From the NCBI GenBank assembly GCA_963737655.1, contig CAVTTN010000002.1:1664001-1728000 (forward strand): a stretch of DNA of 64,000 nucleotides, in the 5' to 3' direction. This document shows positions 8,914 to 19,604 of the stretch, piece after piece. Positions within the stretch are counted from its first letter, which is position 1. Every line of letters begins with the position of its first letter. Both the position numbers and the translations under genes were made by a program. The notes under the pieces are model-generated. The model made no database searches. It was not told the DNA's origin and saw nothing but the letters and a program-made list of their open reading frames with translations. The DNA comes from an uncultured Planctomycetota bacterium (lineage in GTDB: Bacteria; Planctomycetota; Planctomycetia; Isosphaerales; Isosphaeraceae).

Positions 8914-9104
8914 GGCTCGGCAACCGGTCGAGCCGGGGAGGGGGATGCGATGCCCGTTCGGCCGTTCGCGCCTCGTCGCCGTGCCGGTCGTCGCGTCGCC
9001 GTGCCGGTCGTCGCGTCGCCGTCGGCCGCGCCCCGCGTCGTCGCCGCCCGGGGTGGCGCGCGTGGTCGCCGCCGGCGGTCGTGCCCCGCGCGGTCGCGCC
9101 GCCT

Positions 9105-9484
9105 CTTCGTGAACTCTTTGGCTGGGAACGGCCATCGACGCGCGACACTACCCCAACCCCAGGCTTTGTGGCCGGGCAGCGGCGAGGTCCGGGTAGCAAA
9201 CCGACGGATTCAAGAGCGGCGGACGAGGCGCGGGCCGAGAGGGGAGTCGGTTACGCTTGCAGTCTCTTCGACGGGAACATCCCCGCGAGTCGGCTCGCGG
9301 GGCGTCGCCAATGACCGGATCACGACCTCTCGGGCCAGGCTAACCTACGGGCAGGGAGCACCAAGGTGGAGACGGCCGGGAGGCCCGCGCCACACTCAGG
9401 CTACGCCGCGCCGGGTCGGCGGGCAAGTCGTCCCCGACCCCCGTTCACGCCCCGTCGGGAGCGGACGAAGGCCGCAGGATGGTT
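9105..9484 (-). mobile_element. 380-bp non-autonomous IS110-derived mini-element, copy 1, inserted in attC
   Basis: Inserted at GCCT|AAC; homologous to the non-coding end of the IS110 at 13049-13337; no transposase ORF. Confidence 0.9.
9230..9392 (-). ncRNA. putative bridge RNA of the mini-element (boundaries approximate; also present in copies 2-4)
   Basis: Two stem-enclosed loops on the minus strand; AGGTTAG (plus CTAACCT 9340-9346) matches the attC target; CGAAGAG (plus CTCTTCG 9264-9270) matches the element end junction 9103-9109. Confidence 0.7.
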
Positions 9485-9579
9485 AACCTCGCGCTGCAGC
9501 GGACCCCACCCGCCGCATCGGTTTCTGGTAGATTCAAGGTCGCTCGTGCGGGTGGGTCCGCTGAGCTTGGCCGTTAGGC
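9485..9579 (+). other. attC site 1 (R'' box split by mini-element)
   Basis: AAC...GCTGCAGCGGACCCCACCCGC / GCGGGTGGGTCCGCTGAGC...GTTAGGC with extrahelical bases. Confidence 0.9.
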
Positions 9580-10565
9580 GGCTCAGGAGTCGAAGCCTTC
9601 GGTCGTGCTCGTCGTCGGCCTCGCCGGTCGCGCCTCGGCTCGACGACGCCATCGGTCGGGCCCCTGGAGTCGGCCTCGGCGGTGGTGCGCGTCGTCGCCC
9701 TCGCCGGCCGCGCCCCCGAGGTCGGGCCCGTCGGCCGGCGCCCCCTTGCCAACGCCGTCGGTCCGTGCCAGGATCGTCGGTGTCGGCGCGTGGGGCGTCG
9801 CCGGGCGCCGCCTAACCCGGCGCTGCAGCGGACCCGGCCCGCGGTCGACGATCACTCTCCTCTCAATCTCGCCGGGCGCGGGCCGGTCCGCTGAGCTTTG
9901 TCGTTAGGCGGCTCAGGAGTCGAAGCCTTCGGTCGTGCTCGTCGTCGGCCTCGCCGGTCGCGCCTCGGCTCGACGACGCCATCGGTCGGGCCCCTGGAGT
10001 CGGCCTCGGCGGTGGTGCGCGTCGTCGCCCTCGCCGGCCGCGCCCCCGAGGTCGGGCCCGTCGGCCGGCGCCCCCTTGCCAACGCCGTCGGTCCGTGCCA
10101 GGATCGTCGGTGTCGGCGCGTGGGGCGTCGCCGGGGCGCCGCCTAACCCGGCGCTGCAGCGGACCCGGCCCGCGGTCGACGATCACTCTCCTCTCAATCT
10201 CGCCGGGCGCGGGCCGGTCCGCTGAGCTTTGTCGTTAGGCGGCTCAGGAGTCGAAGCCTTCGGTCGTGCTCGTCGTCGGCCTCGCCGGTCGTGCCTCGGC
10301 TCGACGACGCCATCGGTCGGGCCCCTGGAGTCGGCCTCGGCGGTGGTGCGCGTCGTCGCCCTCGCCGGCCGCGCCCCCGAGGTCGGGCCCGTCGGCCGGC
10401 GCCCCCTTGCCAACGCCGTCGGTCCGTGCCAGGATCGTCGGTGTCGGCGCGTGGGGCGTCGCCGGGGCGCCGCCTAACCCGGCGCTGCAGCGGACCCGGC
10501 CCGCGGTCGACGATCACTCTCCTCTCAATCTCGCCGGGCGCGGGCCGGTCCGCTGAGCTTTGTCG
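9574..10565 (+). repeat. three tandem copies (330/331/331 bp) of an apparently ORF-less cassette, each with an intact attC (9810-9909, 10141-10240, 10472-10571)
   Basis: Near-identical units bounded by G|TTAGGC crossovers; attC GCCTAAC...GTTAGGC, 100 bp. Confidence 0.9.
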
Positions 10566-10652
10566 TTAGGCGGCTAGGAGATGACGTCGCCGGAAGCACG
10601 CACAATCCGACGACCCTTTCGATGGAACGGCCGATCTCGCGGCGGGGCGTTT

Positions 10653-11543
10653 ATGGCTTTCCTGCGGATGTCGGTCCTCGGCCTCACAGGCGTCATCGCA
10701 ATGGTCGCCCTCGCATTGGCGTCTCTTCGCTACTCGACGCCGAACGTGGCGCGATGGAGCCTGACGGCGGTCTTCCTGATCCACGGGCTCGCGATCCTCG
10801 CCGCGATCTATCGACGTGGGGCGACTCGCGCCTTCTGGCTGGGCTTTGCCCTGATGGGCGGGGGCTATCTGGGCCTCTCCTCCGGCTCGTGGACGCTCAC
10901 CCAAAAGGAAGATGACTTGTACAAGAATGGATTCTTCGTGGATTTCGCCGGCGTTCACGGCGCGGTGCGTGAACCGGCCCCGCTCGGACACTGGCTAGGT
11001 ACAACGGCCCTCCTCGACTCGCTACGCATCGGGATTCAGATCGACAACGGCACCGGCTCGCCCCCGAACAGGCTGGAAGGATTGTTCGACTTCGATCGCA
11101 GGAGAAGTGCCATGCTCGCCGCGTTAGACCGGCCGCTTGAGATGCCGTTTCCACGAGAAACTCCGCTCGATGACGTGCTGAATTACATCAAGGTCTCGAC
11201 TCGCACCGCGGCCCTGCCGGACGGGATCCCGATCTACGTCGATCCGATCGGGCTGGTGGAGGCGGAGAAGACGATGTCGTCGGGCGTGAGCCTGGAAGTG
11301 AAGGGCATCCCGCTTCGGAGGTCACTGCCCCTGATCCTCGGGCAGGTCGATCTGGCGTGCGTCGTTGATGCCGATCTTGTGACGATCACCAGCCGTACCC
11401 GCGCCTCGGTGACGGACCGCGTCGAGGCGTTTCGCCGCATCGGGCACAGCCTATTCGCCTTGATATTCGCCGTCATCGGCGGGGTTGCTGCTTGTACCCT
11501 AAGGACGAAGCCTGAAAGATCCACCCACGCCGCCTCCCCGTGA
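10653..11543 (+). CDS. cassette-borne planctomycete membrane protein (paralog of 52698-53603 and 53600-54481)
   Basis: N-terminal TM helices, YRRGATRAFWLGFAL, MPFPRETPLDDVLNYIK...GIPIYVDPIGL domain; alternative start 10581. Confidence 0.8.
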   Translation: MAFLRMSVLGLTGVIAMVALALASLRYSTPNVARWSLTAVFLIHGLAILAAIYRRGATRAFWLGFALMGGGYLGLSSGSWTLTQKEDDLYKNGFFVDFAGVHGAVREPAPLGHWLGTTALLDSLRIGIQIDNGTGSPPNRLEGLFDFDRRRSAMLAALDRPLEMPFPRETPLDDVLNYIKVSTRTAALPDGIPIYVDPIGLVEAEKTMSSGVSLEVKGIPLRRSLPLILGQVDLACVVDADLVTITSRTRASVTDRVEAFRRIGHSLFALIFAVIGGVAACTLRTKPERSTHAASP

Positions 11544-11695
11544 ACTCTTCGCGCCGGCGGTTCGGCATCGGTTGATACTATGTGGGCGTGATCATCGATC
11601 GGCCCGCATCCCCCCCGGCCCCCGCGACGACGGGGACGGCCCGATCCGGCTCGGCGGGGCTTGCGGCCGGGCGCCCCGCCTCCGACCCGTCGCCC

Positions 11696-13048
11696 TCACG
11701 ACGGCGGCGACGGCGGCGACTTCGCCACCAGCTCGTAGCCCAGCGACCTCGCCTTGCGCCGCAGCGAACGCTCCTGCTTCCGCCTCACCTCCGCCTCGTA
11801 CTCCGCCAGCGACCTCGACACGTACTCCTCGCCGTGCCTGAGCAGCCGGTACACCAGCCGCGACAGCTTGTGCGCCGTCGCCGTGATCGCCCCGCGGCCG
11901 CCGATCCGGCCCTTGATCCGCCGGTAGAACTGGCCCGTCGCCGTCGCCGTCCGGCCCGCCGCCTGCGCCGCCATCCGCAGCGCCTGACCCACCCGGTTCT
12001 TGCCCTTGCGGGGCGTGCGACGCCGCTCGGTCTTGTTGCTCCGGTCGGTCCGCGGGCAGAGGCCCAGCCAGCTGGCGAAGTGCTTCTCGCTCGGGAACCG
12101 CCCCACGTCGCCGCCGAGCTCCGCCAGGATCACCGTCGCCGTCGTCGCGTCGATCCCCTCGATGGCCGTCAGGTCGACGCCGATCGCCCGGGCCAGCTTG
12201 GCCGGGGCGTCGAACCGCACGTCGTTGGCCTTGCGGCCGCGACGCCGCGGCCTCGGGGCGACCGGCTCGCCCCCGGAGCGGTCGGGCAGGCGGTCCAGCT
12301 CCTCGGCGATCCGGGCGTCGCACTCGTCGACCTGGCGGTGGAGGTACTGGTACAGGTCGGACGCCTGCTTCAGGGCGAACAGGTGCTCGGGCCGCCAGGT
12401 GCCCTCCAGGGCCCGGGCGATCTCCGCCTCGTCCCGGGCGCACCGCTCGTGCCGCAGCGCGGCCAGCCTCGCCGGGTCGCGCTCGCCGGCGAGGATGGCG
12501 GCGATGATCGCCGTGCCGGTGACGCCCGTGATGCTGCTGACGACCTCGGTCAGCTTCACATTCATCTGCTCCAAAGCCTTCTGCATGTGCTGGACGTGGT
12601 GCGAGGCGTACCGCACGAGCATCTGCCGCTGCCGCCAGTAGCCGCGCAGGGCCAGGACGGCCCCGGGCGGGCGGAAGGACGGGCGGAGCAGGCCGCAGGC
12701 GTGGAGGCGCTGGAGCCACTGGCAGTCGAGCCGGTCGGTCTTGGGCCGGGCGCCGCAGTGGCTGGCCTGGCTCGGCTCGATGAGGAAGACCTCGAAGCCG
12801 CGCGATTCGAGCAGCTCGAACAGGGGGATCCAGTAGACGCCGGTGGACTCCAGGACCACCGAGGTGACGCCCTCGGCCCGGAACCAATCGGCCAGGGCGT
12901 GGAGGTCGGCCGAGCAGGCGCCGAAGGTGCGGACCCGTCCGGGCCCGACGCAGGCGACGTGGTTGTCGGAGTGGACGTCGACGGCGGCGGCGTGGGGGTG
13001 GACGACCGGCAGGGACGCGTCGGGATCGGGGGGCGTGCGGCGACTCAT
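11696..13048 (-). CDS. IS110-family DEDD recombinase/transposase
   Basis: AAVDVH, LESTGVYW, KTDRLDC (DEDD RuvC-like); FPSEKHFASWLGLCP...SN; ATAHKL. Confidence 0.95.
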   Translation of the reverse strand: MSRRTPPDPDASLPVVHPHAAAVDVHSDNHVACVGPGRVRTFGACSADLHALADWFRAEGVTSVVLESTGVYWIPLFELLESRGFEVFLIEPSQASHCGARPKTDRLDCQWLQRLHACGLLRPSFRPPGAVLALRGYWRQRQMLVRYASHHVQHMQKALEQMNVKLTEVVSSITGVTGTAIIAAILAGERDPARLAALRHERCARDEAEIARALEGTWRPEHLFALKQASDLYQYLHRQVDECDARIAEELDRLPDRSGGEPVAPRPRRRGRKANDVRFDAPAKLARAIGVDLTAIEGIDATTATVILAELGGDVGRFPSEKHFASWLGLCPRTDRSNKTERRRTPRKGKNRVGQALRMAAQAAGRTATATGQFYRRIKGRIGGRGAITATAHKLSRLVYRLLRHGEEYVSRSLAEYEAEVRRKQERSLRRKARSLGYELVAKSPPSPPS

Positions 13049-13084
13049 GGCGAGGGCTCCGGCGGGTGGGGGGCCAAGCCGTCG

Positions 13085-13250
13085 CGGGCCGAGAGGGGGT
13101 CCGGGGACGAGGTAGTCTCCCCGACGGGAACGTCGCGGGGCCGTGTTGACACGGCGCCGCGGGTCACCAATGATGGGGCCACGGCCTCTCGGGCCATGCT
13201 AACCTGCGGGCGGCGAGCACCAGGGAGATGACGGCCGGGAGGCCCGCGAC
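13085..13250 (-). ncRNA. putative IS110 bridge RNA (boundaries approximate)
   Basis: Non-coding end upstream of the transposase; CTAACCT 13199-13205 matches the target; CTCCCCG 13117-13123 matches the element end junction 11534-11540. Confidence 0.75.
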
Positions 13251-13337
13251 GGCGTGCCCCAGCGTATCGCGCCCGGTGGTCGGGGCCACCCCCGGTTCAC
13301 GTCCGTCGGGGAGCGGTCGGAGACGGCGCGGAGAGTT

Positions 13338-13435
13338 AACCTCGCGCTGCAGCGGACCCCGGCCACGGGCCGCGCTTTCTCCGTTGTCATAGCTCACTGG
13401 TCCGTGGCCGGGTCCGCTGAGCTTGGTCGTTAGGC
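13338..13435 (+). other. attC site 5 (split by IS110)
   Basis: AAC..GCTGCAGCGGACC..GGTCCGCTGAGC..GTTAGGC. Confidence 0.9.
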
Positions 13436-13447
13436 GGCTCGGTGGCG

Positions 13448-13717
13448 ATGCCTGAAGTACCGCTCGCTCACCTCGTATTCCTGCGGCGTGGCTCCGTACT
13501 CATCGTCAAGCGGCCCGAGGTCGACTGGCGGCAACTCCAAGACGAATACGACGACTACATGGCGTCGCTCGGCCCTTGGTCGGAGGACGACATCTGCGAG
13601 CACTTCGCGCTTGACTACGGGGAGGACGATCGCCGCTGGCCGTTCACGCGGTCGGCCATCGGCGAGTTCATGCGCGCGGCTGGCCCGGTCGTGCTGGAGT
13701 CGGCCGCCTCTTCGTGA
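13448..13717 (+). CDS. cassette hypothetical protein (acidic, about 90 aa)
   Basis: ORF fills the cassette; stop codon supplied by mini-element 2. Confidence 0.7.
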   Translation: MPEVPLAHLVFLRRGSVLIVKRPEVDWRQLQDEYDDYMASLGPWSEDDICEHFALDYGEDDRRWPFTRSAIGEFMRAAGPVVLESAASS

Positions 13718-14089
13718 ACTCTTTGGCTGGGAACGGCCATCGACGCGCAACACTACCCCAACCCCAGGCTTTGTGGCCGGGCAGCGGCGAGGTCCGGGTA
13801 GCAAACCGACGGATTCAAGAGCGGCGGACGAGGCGCGGGCCGAGAGGGGAGTCGGTTACGCTTGCAGTCTCTTCGACGGGAACATCCCCGCGAGTCGGCT
13901 CGCGGGGCGTCGCCAATGACCGGATCACGACCTCTCGGGCCAGGCTAACCTACGGGCAGGGAGCACCAAGGTGGAGACGGCCGGGAGGCCCGCGCCACAC
14001 TCAGGCTACGCCGCGCCGGGTCGGCGGGCAAGTCGTCCCCGACCCCCGTTCACGCCCCGTCGGGAGCGGACGAAGGCCGCAGGATGGTT
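13710..14089 (-). mobile_element. 380-bp IS110-derived mini-element, copy 2
   Basis: Near-identical to copy 1 (one substitution seen); inserted at GCCT|AAC. Confidence 0.9.
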
Positions 14090-14184
14090 AACCTTGCGCT
14101 GCAGCGGACCCCACCCGCCGCGACGGTTTTGGTACTATCCGAGGTCGCTCGGGCGGGTGGGTCCGCTGAGCTTTGTCGTTAGGC
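14090..14184 (+). other. attC site 6 (split)
   Basis: attC hairpin ending GTTAGGC 14178-14184. Confidence 0.9.
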
Positions 14185-14199
14185 GGCGGAGATTTTATC

Positions 14200-14820
14200 G
14201 TGCATCGAGCGATGTTCGTACTCACGGCCCTATTAACCGCCGGGTGCGGACAAGATCTATCTTCGAAGACGCCCCCGATCCTTTCGAAGGCTCTCCCCGA
14301 CTCGGGTCGCCGTGTGATTGATGCCGATCGGGTTGTAAAAGTTGCAGGGCGGACTCTCCCGGATGTTCCCCTCGTCGTGAACGGCGCGACGGGGGAGTCC
14401 GACTCCGCTGGTCATGCACTGTTCACGCTCAAAGGCGGACCGGAGCGAGTTCTGGCATCTGATCCCATCCTCAGCATCGCGCACGTCAAGATCGCGCCGG
14501 ACCGATCCGTCGGGGTCGAGAGCCGGGGAACCACGAGCGGGAATACACCCGACAAGTTCGTCTGGGACGAGCATCGCGATTTCAAGATCAATGGACAGCC
14601 GGCCACTTTGAGCCTTCGTCTGGATGGGCGCAATCATAGCCTACAAGTTGCCGGCGAGACCTTCGATCTCGCCCGAGGTAATTTCTTCACCGTCAGGCTG
14701 GCGGCCGGTTCACGTCTGGTCGCTGAACAGTTTCCACTGATTGATGTCATCGAGGATGATCCGCCCAAAGTTGAAGCCAGATTCACTGGATTCGAGAAAT
14801 CTCGACAAGGTGGTAAGTAG
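14200..14820 (+). CDS. cassette hypothetical lipoprotein
   Basis: Lipobox LTAGC after a hydrophobic stretch; lower GC. Confidence 0.7.
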   Translation: MHRAMFVLTALLTAGCGQDLSSKTPPILSKALPDSGRRVIDADRVVKVAGRTLPDVPLVVNGATGESDSAGHALFTLKGGPERVLASDPILSIAHVKIAPDRSVGVESRGTTSGNTPDKFVWDEHRDFKINGQPATLSLRLDGRNHSLQVAGETFDLARGNFFTVRLAAGSRLVAEQFPLIDVIEDDPPKVEARFTGFEKSRQGGK

Positions 14821-14865
14821 CTGTGGCCTTGCCTAAGCTTCGGCCGGCGTAGCGGCGAGATGCCT

Positions 14866-15245
14866 CTTCGTGAACTCTTTGGCTGGGAACGGCCATCGAC
14901 GCGCGACACTACCCCAACCCCAGGCTTTGTGGCCGGGCAGCGGCGAGGTCCGGGTAGCAAACCGACGGATTCAAGAGCGGCGGACGAGGCGCGGGCCGAG
15001 AGGGGAGTCGGTTACGTTTGCAGTCTCTTCGACGGGAACATCCCCGCGAGTCGGCTCGCGGGGCGTCGCCAATGACCGGATCACGACCTCTCGGGCCAGG
15101 CTAACCTACGGGCAGGGAGCACCAAGGTGGAGACGGCCGGGAGGCCCGCGCCACACTCAGGCTACGCCGCGCCGGGTCGGCGGGCAAGTCGTCCCCGACC
15201 CCCGTTCACGCCCCGTCGGGAGCGGACGAAGGCCGCAGGATGGTT
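14866..15245 (-). mobile_element. 380-bp IS110-derived mini-element, copy 3
   Basis: Near-identical to copy 1 (one substitution seen); inserted at GCCT|AAC. Confidence 0.9.
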
Positions 15246-15341
15246 AACCTCGCGCTGCAGCGGACCCCGCACCGCCGCGGCGATTCTTGTGTTATCATCG
15301 CGTTCTCGGCGGTGCGGGTCCGCTGAGCTTTGGCGTTAGGC
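15246..15341 (+). other. attC site 7 (split)
   Basis: attC hairpin ending GTTAGGC 15335-15341. Confidence 0.9.
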
Positions 15342-15369
15342 GGCTCGGCGAAGATGCCTCGGGACACCC

Positions 15370-15765
15370 GTGACGTTCGACCCCGACCGAATCATGACCC
15401 TCTCGACCATGCAGTTCCGACGTTTCGGAATCGCGTGCTGCTATCGGTTGGGGTGCGACCGCAAAGACAAGCGTCTCGCGAAGGCGCTCAAGAGACTGGA
15501 GCAATCGCTGGGGCCGCCGGCCGACGAGAGCATGCGTCGTGACGCGCTCAACGCCGCCAACTCCGCTTGCCGAGACCTCTCCGCAAGCAGCGGCGTGATA
15601 CAGGTCGTTGCCCGCACCCTTGTTTGTGCCTGCTGGGACGGTCCCAATGAGAATCTGATTGGGAATTTCGAAGCGGCGCTTGAACAAGGAGAGCACTTGA
15701 GCAGGTCCGAGATCAAGGACATTGAAAGCGAGATCTTTCGGGCTATCCTGGGCGCCTCTTCGTGA
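15370..15765 (+). CDS. cassette hypothetical protein
   Basis: ORF fills the cassette; stop codon supplied by mini-element 4. Confidence 0.7.
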   Translation: MTFDPDRIMTLSTMQFRRFGIACCYRLGCDRKDKRLAKALKRLEQSLGPPADESMRRDALNAANSACRDLSASSGVIQVVARTLVCACWDGPNENLIGNFEAALEQGEHLSRSEIKDIESEIFRAILGASS

Positions 15766-16137
15766 ACTCTTTGGCTGGGAACGGCCATCGACGCGCGACA
15801 CTACCCCAACCCCAGGCTTTGTGGCCGGGCAGCGGCGAGGTCCGGGTAGCAAACCGACGGATTCAAGAGCGGCGGACGAGGCGCGGGCCGAGAGGGGAGT
15901 CGGTTACGCTTGCAGTCTCTTCGACGGGAACATCCCCGCGAGTCGGCTCGCGGGGCGTCGCCAATGACCGGATCACGACCTCTCGGGCCAGGCTAACCTA
16001 CGGGCAGGGAGCACCAAGGTGGAGACGGCCGGGAGGCCCGCGCCACACTCAGGCTACGCCGCGCCGGGTCGGCGGGCAAGTCGTCCCCGACCCCCGTTCA
16101 CGCCCCGTCGGGAGCGGACGAAGGCCGCAGGATGGTT
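15758..16137 (-). mobile_element. 380-bp IS110-derived mini-element, copy 4
   Basis: Matches copy 1; inserted at GCCT|AAC. Confidence 0.9.
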
Positions 16138-16232
16138 AACCTGGCGCTGCAGCGGACCCGGCCCGCCGCGGTAGTTTCCGTGCTATCATCGGTCTGCTCG
16201 GCGGGCCGGTCCGCTGAGCTTGGTCGTTAGGC
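16138..16232 (+). other. attC site 8 (split)
   Basis: attC hairpin ending GTTAGGC 16226-16232. Confidence 0.9.
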
Positions 16233-16372
16233 GGTTCGGGCACCGTTGGATCGCGCGGCGAAATCCAGAAGTCCCAACGGCAGCCCCTTGTCATCCGCCG
16301 CCGGGATCGATAGGGTCGCCGGCGTCGGTGCCACGCAGCGGAGCGAGGCTTGTCTAATCAGGGGCGTAATCC

Positions 16373-16582
16373 ATGAAAGCCTGGAAGAAAACCTTCCCTT
16401 CGATCGGGTTCGCGATCGCCGCCGTGGCATTCCTATTCGCCGGTTTGGAGGAGCGGGTCATCGCTGGGGGGCGGCTCCGCTACCCCATGCTGAGCTTGGC
16501 ATTCTTGTACTTCGTCTTAGCCTTCGTATTCTTCGACCGAGGCCGGAAGTCAGGTGGCGAGACCGGACCGCCAAATGCCTGA
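16373..16582 (+). CDS. cassette small membrane protein (2 TM)
   Basis: AGGGG upstream; two hydrophobic segments. Confidence 0.6.
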   Translation: MKAWKKTFPSIGFAIAAVAFLFAGLEERVIAGGRLRYPMLSLAFLYFVLAFVFFDRGRKSGGETGPPNA

Positions 16583-16651
16583 CCTGCTGGCTAGCCCGGG
16601 CGATGCGGCGAGGAGGAACGATCGTCAGCGGCATTCAAGGTCTCCCGGCCT

Positions 16652-17647
16652 CCCCGTGAACTCTTCGCGCCGACGGTTCGACATCGGTTGATACTATGTG
16701 GGCGTGATCATCGATCGGGGTCAAAAAGGGGACGGGGGTCAAAAAGGGGACGGGGGTCAAAAAGGGGACGGGGTCAAAAAGGGGACGGAGCGAATAAATT
16801 CAGCTTTTTGCATTTTGCCGCGTCTCATCCAGGCCGAACTTATTCGCTCCGTCCCCTTTTCGGCCCCCGCCGTCCCCTTTTCGGCCCCCGCGTCCCCTTT
16901 TCGGCCCCCGTCCCCTTTTCGGCCCCTCTGCCGCTGCCGCCAGTAGCCGCGCAGGGCCAGGACCGCGGCCGGCGGGCGGAAGGACGGGCGGAGCAGGCCG
17001 CACGAGTGGAGGCGCCGGAGCCACTGGCAGTCGAGCCGGTCGGTCTTGGGCCGGGCGCCGCAGTGGCTGGCCTGGCTCGGCTCGATGAGGAAGACCTCGA
17101 AGCCGCGCGATTCGAGCAGCTCGAACAGGGGGATCCAGTAGACGCCGGTGGACTCCAGGACCACCGAGGTGACGCCCTCGGCCCGGAACCAGTCGGCCAG
17201 GGCGTGGAGGTCGGCCGAGCAGGCGCCGAAGGTGCGGACCCGTCCGGGTCCGACGCAGGCGACGTGGTTGTCGGAGTGGACGTCGACGGCCGCGGCGTGG
17301 GGGTGGATGACCGGCAGGGTCGCGTCGGGATCGGGCGGCTTGCGACGGCTCATCGGGCGGCTCCGGCGGGTTGGGGCGTGGGGGCCGAGCCGCCGCGAGC
17401 CGAGAGGGGGGCCGGGGACGAGCAGTCTCCCCGACGGGAACGTCGCGGCGCCGCGTTGACACGGCGTCGCGGGTCACCAATGATGGGGCCACGGCTTCTC
17501 GGGCCAGGCTAACCTGCGGGCGGCGAGCACCAGGGAAGGGACGGCCGGGAGGCTCGCGACGGCGTGCCCCAGCGTATCGCGCCCGGTGGTCGGGGCCACC
17601 CCCGGTTCACGTCCGTCGGGGAGCGGTCGGAGACGGCGCGGAGAGTT
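16652..17647 (-). mobile_element. internally deleted IS110 copy in attC (both ends and bridge region retained; transposase truncated, 16927-17353)
   Basis: High identity to 11536-13337 at both ends; about 1 kb replaced by a palindromic repeat block. Confidence 0.9.
16719..16926. repeat. palindromic tandem-repeat block (REP-like)
   Basis: 4x TCAAAAAGGGGACGG, central IR GGAGCGAATAA/TTATTCGCTCC, 4x GTCCCCTTTT(T)CGGCCCC. Confidence 0.8.
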
Positions 17648-17743
17648 AACCTGGCGCGGCAGCGGACCCCGCCCGCCACGACGCCTTCTGGTATCATCAA
17701 GCCTTTCCTCGGCGGGCCGGTCCGCTGAGCTTGGGCGTTAGGC
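17648..17743 (+). other. attC site 9 (split)
   Basis: attC hairpin ending GTTAGGC 17737-17743. Confidence 0.88.
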
Positions 17744-18135: not shown

Positions 18136-18148
18136 GGACACGCCATGC

Positions 18149-18650
18149 TGGACTTCCCCGCCGAGGGCGGGCGCCGGGTTACGAGCGTAAGCTCGAACCT
18201 GGAGGCCTTCATGCCGACGATCCGAAGGACGTGCACGCCCGAGTTCAAGGCCGAGGCCGTCAAGCTCGTCACCGAGCAGGGGCGGAGCTTCGTCGAGGTC
18301 TCTCGCGACCTCGACATCGGCGACAGCACGCTGAGGGGCTGGCGGGATGCCATCGCCAAGGACGGCCAGCGGGTCTTCCCGGGGCGGGGCATCCCGCCCG
18401 CCCTGGAGGAGGAACTCCGCCGCCTCCGCGCCGATGTCAAGCGGCTCACGATGGAGCGCGACATCCTGAAAGAAGCGACGGCCTGCTTCGCCGGGGGGTC
18501 GTCATGAGGTACGGCTTCGTCGAGGCCCACCGGGGCGATGGCCGGTCCGGCTCATGTGCCGGGTCCCGCGCGTCTCCCCGGGCGGCTACTACGACTGGCG
18601 GGGAAGGCCGAAGAGGGAAGGGGCACGGAGGCGCGACGACCTGGTCGTCG
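18149..18650 (+). pseudogene. IS3-family remnant (orfA 18211-18507; orfB frameshifted and truncated)
   Basis: TG-starting end; RRTCTPEFKAEAVKLV...LTMERDILKEATACFA; orfB fragments MRYGFVEAHR / MCRV..VSPGGYYDWR. Confidence 0.85.
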
Positions 18651-18751
18651 CCCAAACGCTCCGGGGCGGCGAGACGATCACGTCCCAGTCGTCCGCGAAG
18701 CACCTGCCCAGCCGGTTCCGCGTGACGGCCCAGCAGGGCGCCAGCAACCGG

Positions 18752-19213
18752 ATGCCGAGCTACCGGCTCGAACCCGAGGACGCCCCGACGGCACGACAGA
18801 CCCCGCTCCGTCGGCTCGAAGGACCGACGACGTCTCCGGGGACCAGGGCCGAGGCGGCGCCCGTCCCACCGGCCTCACCGCAGAAGGCTCCGGCCTGGCC
18901 GGAGAGCTTCCTCGCCGAGGCCCAGGCCCTGGCCCGCGACCTGGCGAGCGACCGGCCCGGCCGCCACGGCCTCCAGTTCGTCGTCGAGGAGCTCCAGGAG
19001 GTCGTCAACGACCGGCCCGACGACCTGCTGACGATCCTCCTGGCCGGGTACGTGGCCTCGGTGAAACTCGCCTGCGCGAGCGAACCCGATCGGGCCTACC
19101 GCGGCCACTTCGACGACCTGGCGCGGAAGGCCCTCGACCCGACCCTCCAGAACGTGGCGACGACCGCCCGACCCGGGGGCCTCGGCTCGCTCCTGGGGGC
19201 CGTCACCCGCTGA
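18752..19213 (+). CDS. hypothetical protein (start uncertain)
   Basis: GC3-biased frame downstream of the IS3 remnant. Confidence 0.35.
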   Translation: MPSYRLEPEDAPTARQTPLRRLEGPTTSPGTRAEAAPVPPASPQKAPAWPESFLAEAQALARDLASDRPGRHGLQFVVEELQEVVNDRPDDLLTILLAGYVASVKLACASEPDRAYRGHFDDLARKALDPTLQNVATTARPGGLGSLLGAVTR

Positions 19214-19604
19214 CTCGGCCTCGGCCGCGAGGCCTGACCGGAAGACGAAGCCGTCGCCCGTCCCCACGCCCGACCTCGGCGCGGGCCCTCCCGTCGCACT
19301 CCGCGAGATCGGCCCCTATGGTCCGGCGGGGACGGTCCCCGGCGCCCTGCACGACGATCGTCCCGCCCAGCCGCGGGCGAGCCAGGTCCGCAAGCTCCGC
19401 GCGATCCCGAGGTCGTCAGGGCCTTCCGTCGGACCCCCCTGGAGTTCCTCGCGAACGGGCTTCCTGTCCTCGGCGGACGCGAGTGCGTCCGGAAATCCCG
19501 AACGAGAGGATGTCTTCATGAAGGGAGTCATCGCAAGCCCGAAGGACGGCCCCGCCAACGGGCCGCTGGTCCGAATGGAGCGTCGGGAGCCGGGTGGCGC
19601 GGTC

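Follow-up and report, generated by a model that had tools for sequence, protein, structure and literature searches.

An IS110-type insertion sequence and its transposase-less derivative in guide-matching attC sites of a planctomycete cassette array

We analysed a window of 64,000 nucleotides from an uncultured Planctomycetota bacterium (GenBank assembly GCA_963737655.1, contig CAVTTN010000002.1, positions 1,664,001 to 1,728,000), in which an integron-type cassette array is interrupted by copies of two related mobile elements, here named A and B. B is an intact insertion sequence (IS) of the IS110 family and A is a much shorter element without a transposase gene. Both were found inserted in the attC recombination sites of the array, always next to the same short sequence, which matches a putative RNA guide within the elements themselves. 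The host genome (7.63 Mb in 3 contigs) was of planctomycete type, and its relatives are labelled Planctomycetota/Isosphaeraceae.

The cassette array and its attC sites

The + strand of the window between about 9100 and 17750 was a succession of short cassettes, each closed by a site of about 100 bases with the layout GCCTAAC, a 5-base spacer, GCTGCAGCGGACC, a variable loop, GGTCCGCTGAGC, a 6-base spacer and GTTAGGC. Core sites of attC follow the consensus R'' = RYYYAAC and R' = GTTRRRY, an inverse pair around an imperfect palindrome, and the R'' and R' cores of the sites in our genome census (see below), GCCTAAC and GTTAGGC, fit it. When folded, the bottom strand of an intact site formed an R stem of 8 bp and a long L stem with bulges and left the central spacer unpaired; the energy was -36.7 kcal/mol versus -22.8 for shuffled sequences (z = -5.9). 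The genome had a single integron integrase, IntI (TIGR02249, 474.6 bits, cut-off 265), encoded at C2:6777135-6778073 and adjoining an array of the same type of sites at 6778-6793 kb. The fold, the core sites and the position of IntI beside such an array identify the sites of the window as attC. Co-oriented attC arrays occurred at about ten places in the genome, and the window array, which has no IntI of its own, was one of about ten without integrase.

Three attC of the window were intact and empty, and belonged to a cassette of 331 bp that was present in three tandem copies (9580-10571). They were located on the + strand at 9810-9909 (R'' GCCTAAC, spacer CCGGC, R' GTTAGGC at 9903-9909; recognised by census and fold), 10141-10240 and 10472-10571 (the last two by sequence and census). 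In each of them GCCTAACCC marks the beginning (9810, 10141 and 10472), and CTAACCC lies at 9812, 10143 and 10474. Other attC, also on the + strand and recognised by sequence and census, were split by an insert, and their right parts (TAACCT...GTTAGGC) resumed directly after its last base, a T. These right parts were found at 9484-9579 (with the corresponding GCC at 9101-9103), 13337-13435, 14089-14184, 15245-15341, 16137-16232 and 17647-17743; the attC at 16137 had a counterpart of at least 90% identity, empty, at C2:6788552. An earlier note on this DNA had described the six occupied sites as continuing with TAACCT and the three empty ones as reading CTAACCC, and had cautioned that the latter are copies of one cassette and not independent; our inspection agrees with it on each of these points.

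Elements A and B

Element B, on the - strand at 11535-13336, was an intact IS110-family IS of 1802 bp (with a 1-base ambiguity at the junction) placed in the R'' of an attC, so that the left flank ends in ...GCC and the right flank resumes with TAACCT, the right part at 13337. Its transposase gene (11696-13048, - strand) encodes 450 amino acids and presented both domains of the family: the N-terminal DEDD (RuvC-like) domain PF01548 DEDD_Tnp_IS110 (E 2.6e-17, 63.4 bits, cut-off 29) and the C-terminal PF02371 Transposase_20 (E 9.9e-18, 64.8 bits, cut-off 21.3). The non-coding region upstream of the gene measured 288 nt (13049-13336, - strand), versus 161 nt downstream (11535-11695). The upstream region was kept in relatives from other genomes, with variable guide blocks (see below), and is a putative template of a bridge/seek-type guide RNA. 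We found six full-length copies of B in the genome (97.6-100% identity, transposase gene intact) and two broken ones, one of them in the attC at 17647 (16651-17646, - strand; target guide at 17509-17515). In this broken copy, query positions 2-72 and 1092-1806 of B matched (query numbering is offset by 4 from the element start), and positions 73-1091 had given way to a palindromic repeat element at about 16720-16925.

The palindromic element was built from repeats of the GTCAAAAAGGGGACGG type in tandem, together with their inverse. It stood exactly at the point of transposase-gene loss in both internally deleted B copies and was also found at C2:6792342-6792433, at about 19 other places, and after an A copy at C2:286717. 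The motif AAAAGGGGACGG was clustered at 21 places of the genome, several of them within cassette arrays.

Element A, 380 bp long, lacked a transposase gene and kept the guide-RNA region. Four copies, all on the - strand, occupied attC of the window at 9104-9483 (target guide at 9340-9346), 13709-14088, 14865-15244 and 15757-16136, and the genome had 28 copies in all; 14 of these showed 100% identity to the window copy. A was 77% identical to B across about 165 bases of the upstream non-coding region of B, and the ends of the two elements differed. An open reading frame (ORF) of 125 codons spanning A had no match in Pfam, and no cognate transposase for A was found in the genome. With no transposase gene, many near-identical copies and the same target as its autonomous partner B, A resembles a miniature transposable element with inverted repeats (a MITE). 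The other IS110-family genes of the genome were one whose product is 34% identical to the B transposase and a short fragment at C2:287107-287556. The former, at C2:4847285-4848403, adjoins a small attC array at 4849 kb.

The insertion point was fixed by one cassette found both empty (C2:6787910) and occupied (C2:1971064-1971443), where GCC and TAACCT flanked the 380 bp; one T was ambiguous, and the target was not duplicated. All 36 copies of A and B had identical junctions and a single orientation.

The heptamer CGTGAAC was observed about 35 nt inside the left end of B (window 13300-13336), and its inverse GTTCACG 4 nt from the right end (11535-11550). The pair was invariant in all eight non-coding regions that we aligned and present in all copies and relatives. 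It could be a subterminal transposase-binding repeat, which would be unusual for the IS110 type as PMC11187229 describes it.

Guide blocks and their covariation with target and element end

The upstream region of B contained at 13199-13205 (- strand) a block with the RNA sequence AGGUUAG, that is, CTAACCT on the + strand, equal to the target. In the orientation of the element, the target reads ...GAGGTTA|GGCGGC. The heptamer CTAACCT occurred six times in the window, once per insert (9340, 13199, 13945, 15101, 15993 and 17509), with 0.93 expected, and none of 100 shuffled sequences reached six; AGGTTAG was carried by all 34 own copies that a pattern search found. A second block of B, the putative left donor guide (13117-13123, - strand; RNA CGGGGAG), corresponds to the end of the element, and the two varied together: CGGGGAG accompanied an own end ...CACGGGGA|G in B, CGAAGAG accompanied ...CACGAAGA|G in A and in an A-like copy of the same-genus genome G003, and TGGGGAG accompanied ...CATGGGGA|G in genome G014 and in relatives from transposase loci.

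For the target block, related non-coding regions were drawn from genomes of the same genus and the same family, and also from 79 loci with genes for related transposases. We scored 28 distinct insertions from several genomes, in which the left junction was set by homology alignment and not by the guide. From position 1 to position 8, flank and guide were equal in 9, 4, 23, 25, 26, 27, 23 and 27 of the 28 insertions, i.e., positions 3-8 matched in 23-27 of them and positions 1-2 at about chance. Eleven different six-base guides were involved (AGGTTA, GGGTTA, GGATGA, GGTGGA, CATTTA, CATTCA, CACATA, ATCGTA, CAAAAA, TTCGAA and ATATTA). Since the matches jump from 4/28 to 23/28 at position 3, the duplex between guide and flank starts there, at the base that is T in the occupied and C in the empty sites of the window; this base forms the outermost guide pair and lies in the central spacer of attC. 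In genome G014 the guide was GGGUUAG and the flank ...GGGTTA in both of two copies, which corresponds to TAACCC, the C allele with a G guide. In 13 of the 14 loci of relatives that were searched, a G came directly after the right end, matching guide position 9, and G014 and the own copies agreed. What the earlier note had called the CTAACCT guide was in this way recognised as the left target guide, in its DNA form, of a guide RNA of IS110 type, with the T/C base read at position 3 (23/28, eleven guides). We regard RNA-guided targeting of attC with the guide AGGUUAG as very likely.

Two observations concern related copies in public metagenome-assembled genomes (MAGs). One Planctomycetota MAG contained six copies (L080-L083, L088 and L135) with the guide variants CATTCA and CATTTA, situated in a repeated GTYCCATTYA motif. 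On a MAG contig of 2273 bp (locus L076), at about 1815-1835, a B-like right end ...GTTCACGGGGA abuts the left end ACTCGCCTGCGG... of a different element of the same family; the guide of this second element mismatches that flank, so guide pairing does not explain the tandem.

Several results weigh against the overall picture of RNA-guided insertion in attC with the C mismatch as the cause of empty sites. The search of the whole window against Rfam at gathering scores returned no match, and the non-coding region, at E up to 10, gave only matches at chance level. Folds of the single non-coding regions of A and B were no better than those of shuffled sequences (z = -1.2 and -1.75); a consensus fold of eight sequences gave an outer stem and one hairpin, with compensatory changes at 9 of its 45 pairs; it did not separate two guide loops and left the placement of the guides ambiguous. 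The right target guide and right donor guide (RTG, RDG) were not identified in these regions: there was no consistent complement to the left end, and the right flanks were variable after the first G. The element ends imply a circle junction ...GGGGAAC and both guides end in AG, an unexplained mismatch at the second core base. Among the related insertions, L003 had a flank without any match to its guide, and a same-genus insertion (L074/L004) sat at a shifted site, TAAC-TCG. Position 3 was mismatched in L145 (guide TTCGAA, flank GTCGAA) and in L076 (guide AGGTTA, flank TGGTTA; the contig ends after only 7 bases of flank). Three of the six copies in the Planctomycetota MAG adjoined the 'wrong' variant of the motif, i.e., a tolerated mismatch at position 7 or a U:G pair.

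Occupancy of attC sites in the genome

The census of attC was based on motifs, namely two conserved arms with no more than 4 mismatches, and would miss attC of other sequence types. It retained 80 attC-type sites after removal of false matches, 77 of them tabulated together and 3 added to these. Inserts were present in 36 of the 54 attC with CTAACCT, in none of the 13 with CTAACCC, and in none of 13 with other variants (six CTGACCT, two CCAACCT and one each of CCAACCC, CGAACCT, CGAAACT, CTAAACT and TTAACAT); any mismatch in the seven bases thus went with 0/26 occupied sites. All 36 inserts resumed with TAACCT, 34 in intact attC and 2 in attC shortened on the right. Outside attC the genome had 38 CTAACCT, seven of them preceded by GC, and none was occupied; a further 36 were the guide DNA of the elements themselves and not targets. 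The site at C2:819753 (GGTTAACAT) had been a candidate for a third kind of element; its upstream DNA lacked an element end, and the site was counted as an empty, mismatched attC.

Restricted to intact attC, the occupancy was 34/51 for CTAACCT versus 0/13 for CTAACCC (Fisher p = 9e-6, for sites that are not independent). We also grouped the attC into lineages, i.e., clusters at 90% identity or more. An insert was held by 25 of 37 T lineages versus none of three pure C lineages (Fisher p = 0.046), and none of the 16 lineages with any mismatch was occupied versus the same 25 of 37 matching ones (Fisher p = 2e-6). One mixed lineage had three T copies, all occupied, and one C copy, empty.

The earlier note had proposed that every matching site is saturated, and this did not hold, given that 18 of the 54 CTAACCT attC were empty, as were the 38 CTAACCT outside attC. 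The note itself had named two observations that would together count against its reading: many empty TAACCT sites, which were found (the 18 attC), and occupied TAACCC sites, which were not (0/13). In the same-genus genome G003, which has A-like copies, at least six CTAACCT attC were empty. A metagenome scan for right junctions of A and B followed by any base after TAACC, of low power, gave no C: among the 121 loci listed there were five true junctions, all TAACCT.

A match to the guide is necessary and not sufficient: because one third of the matching attC and all matching sites outside attC were empty, insertion falls short of saturation and must depend on something further. The additional requirement is probably the adjacent attC stem-loop, by analogy with the 'sequence-structure dual match' described for ISPpu10 (bioRxiv 10.64898/2026.03.19.712850), in which guide pairing is combined with a stem-loop beside the paired bases. 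In our genome 36/36 inserts adjoined the L stem of attC and 0/38 matches outside attC were used, a distribution of sites that suggests such a role for the stem.

The spacer base and alternative explanations for the empty sites

That a single spacer base gives escape was the second proposal of the earlier note, and it stood in part: none of the 13 CTAACCC attC was occupied, but two relatives tolerate a mismatch at position 3 and the C sites represent only four attC lineages. We lean towards the C mismatch as the cause of the emptiness of these sites, a reading that seems to us somewhat more probable than not. The T/C base was the only consistent difference of the C sites, because T sites with G as the next base (CTAACCTGGC) were occupied, and the four C lineages lie on four unrelated cassettes. 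This reading has points against it. Of the 13 C sites, 10 are copies of one cassette, so that there are only four lineages. Four empty lineages at 67% occupancy would have, by our own arithmetic, p of about 0.012, and the Fisher test on lineages gave only 0.046. In addition, the T/C base pairs at the very end of a duplex that is short.

An explanation by history would be that the CTAACCC cassettes are young, that IntI copied the 331-bp cassette after the main burst of insertion, and that only cassettes with intact attC multiply. It draws on the distribution of this cassette, which also speaks against the mismatch as the cause: the ten copies were near-identical, spread over four arrays (the other copies at C2:284341, 284673, 1969912, 1971786, 1972575, 6778526 and 6787373) and in tandem in the window, and one of them lay directly beside intI as the first cassette, where recent integration usually takes place; youth could account for 10 of the 13 C sites. 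It also agrees with the fold of the attC at 13337, in which the R stem no longer formed with the B insert; the loss of R-box pairing would probably make occupied sites poor integrase substrates. On the other hand, three more C attC on unrelated cassettes were likewise empty, one C site was closely related to three occupied T sites, and the guide demonstrably reads position 3. Since 14 of the 28 A copies were 100% identical, A looks recent too. We consider this history an unlikely account of the empty sites.

Chance would require that a few independent C lineages stayed empty by luck at an occupancy of about two thirds among matching sites. The small number of C lineages and the p value of 0.046 leave some room for it, but all 16 mismatched lineages were empty versus 25 of 37 matching ones occupied (p = 2e-6), and guide and flank covaried across genomes at this very position, so that luck is a highly improbable explanation.

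Least probable of all is the complete reading of the earlier note (saturation, full escape by a single base, and selection on the attC R''-L'' spacer), which the 6/6 occupied T sites and 3/3 empty C sites of the window and the 0/13 occupied C sites of the genome would favour, but which disagrees with the 18/54 empty matching attC, with the six or more further ones in G003, with the position-3 mismatch tolerated by two related insertions and with the CTAACCC attC of G001, a genome of the same genus. G001 held one CTAACCC and one CTAACCG attC, and neither the non-coding region of the elements nor an occupied junction was found in it; the CTAACCC allele thus exists without the element.

Proposed mechanism

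The mechanism that we favour, and consider likely as a whole, is that an IS110-type element, B, and its derivative A are directed into attC by an RNA guide, and that the C mismatch keeps sites empty. The attC sites of the window array would be the preferred landing sites of both elements. A and B would each carry the template of a bridge/seek-type guide RNA upstream of the position of the transposase gene. Its AGGUUAG is identical to the target strand in the orientation of the element and would pair with CTAACCT on the + strand, that is, with the last five bases of R'' and the first two of the unpaired central spacer. The other block, CGGGGAG in B and CGAAGAG in A, reproduces the far end of the element itself. 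Insertion joins the element between GCC and TAAC, with a single orientation and no duplication of the target. The T would pair with the guide base that comes first and lies outermost, and CTAACCC would give an rA:dC mismatch, most likely strongly lowering insertion. We infer that the guide RNA is produced, that the B transposase binds it, and that B mobilises A in trans. The predicted folds suggest that insertion disables attC for the integrase.

Comparison with known systems

According to section 6 of PMC11187229, elements of the IS110 type have the non-coding region upstream of a transposase of 395-455 amino acids, and those of the IS1111 type have it downstream, with a transposase of 330-350 amino acids and subterminal inverted repeats. 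The known elements of attC sites described there are the IS1111-attC group (ISKpn4, ISPst6, ISPa25 and relatives), whose position and orientation within one end of certain attC are constant, and the RNA from their non-coding region bears short target matches (PMC11187229, sections 4, 8 and 9, which cite Tetu & Holmes 2008 and Post & Hall 2009 for the group). Like this group, as far as the description in PMC11187229 goes, B has a DEDD transposase and inserts in attC. Unlike it, B has the region upstream and a transposase of 450 amino acids, within the size range of the IS110 subgroup. Judged by its sequence, B works like the IS1111-attC elements without belonging to that group, and fits the IS110 type.

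The closest parallel for the guide is IS621 (Durrant et al. 2024, PMC11208160), which shares with B an upstream RNA, left-target and left-donor blocks and covariation of guide and target. As described in PMC11208160, the left target guide of IS621 contains the left target and the core and pairs with the opposite strand, and the left donor guide does likewise for the element end; single guide-target mismatches were poorly tolerated at all nine positions. IS621 has targets of its own, repetitive extragenic palindromic (REP) sequences; its left guide has 9 bases and its core is CT (PMC11208160). Unlike in IS621, only positions 3-9 of the corresponding nine match here, both guides end in AG, and we obtained no right-hand guides, Rfam model match or structure match.

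ISEc21, an IS110-type element with a seekRNA, is likewise described in PMC11187229 (section 12) with an upstream region, insertion without duplication, and a relative redirected by changed guide bases; its own target is a conserved stretch of IS3-family transposase genes, and its transposase has 358 amino acids (PMC11187229). A resembles MITEPpu9 of ISPpu9, a small transposase-less companion of the IS110 family with similar ends, for which movement in trans was proposed (PMC12288879). The cited text of PMC12288879 gives MITEPpu9 the Ssr9 small RNA and not a bridge RNA, whereas A keeps the full guide-RNA region, with a donor guide matching its own different end, and outnumbers B 28 to 8.

Other features of the region

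No Pfam match was found on seven cassette ORFs or on two ORFs upstream of the array, and the 331-bp cassette had no ORF recognisable by Pfam. Immediately past the array, at 18145-19521 on the + strand, there were two overlapping ORFs of 120 and 327 amino acids, the first of which presumably encodes a product resembling the helix-turn-helix OrfA of an IS3-family transposase.

Significance for integrons and IS110-type elements

The mechanism itself is not new: RNA-guided targeting by IS110/IS1111 elements and targeting of attC by IS1111 elements have been published, and discrimination of single mismatches is expected from the work on IS621. New is that a lineage of IS110 type, with an upstream guide region and a 450-amino-acid transposase, has reached the targeting of attC, and that a guide-carrying, transposase-less derivative is dominant in copy number. 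In open-access papers and bioRxiv we found no report of IS110-type targeting of attC, none of transposase-less elements retaining a bridge RNA, and none joining bridge RNA with attC or integrons beyond an entry in a reference list. The 80 attC of one genome are also a new, natural data set that reveals which guide positions count in the wild, and the insufficiency of a 7-base match (0/38 outside attC) bears on the structural gating of bridge recombinases.

We offer a further idea tentatively, as possible but doubtful. A may be a self-guided hitch-hiker that has its own RNA for its own ends together with the target of B; by splitting R'' it would freeze two thirds of the matching attC, and CTAACCC would be an escape allele that keeps cassettes free of insertions and mobile. 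As an insert removes the R-box pairing, only insertion-free cassettes should stay mobile, and the sole amplified cassette carries the C allele. If the idea is true, the escape allele would explain why the sole amplified cassette has CTAACCC, and insertion sequences and integrons would be engaged in an arms race at a single unpaired base.

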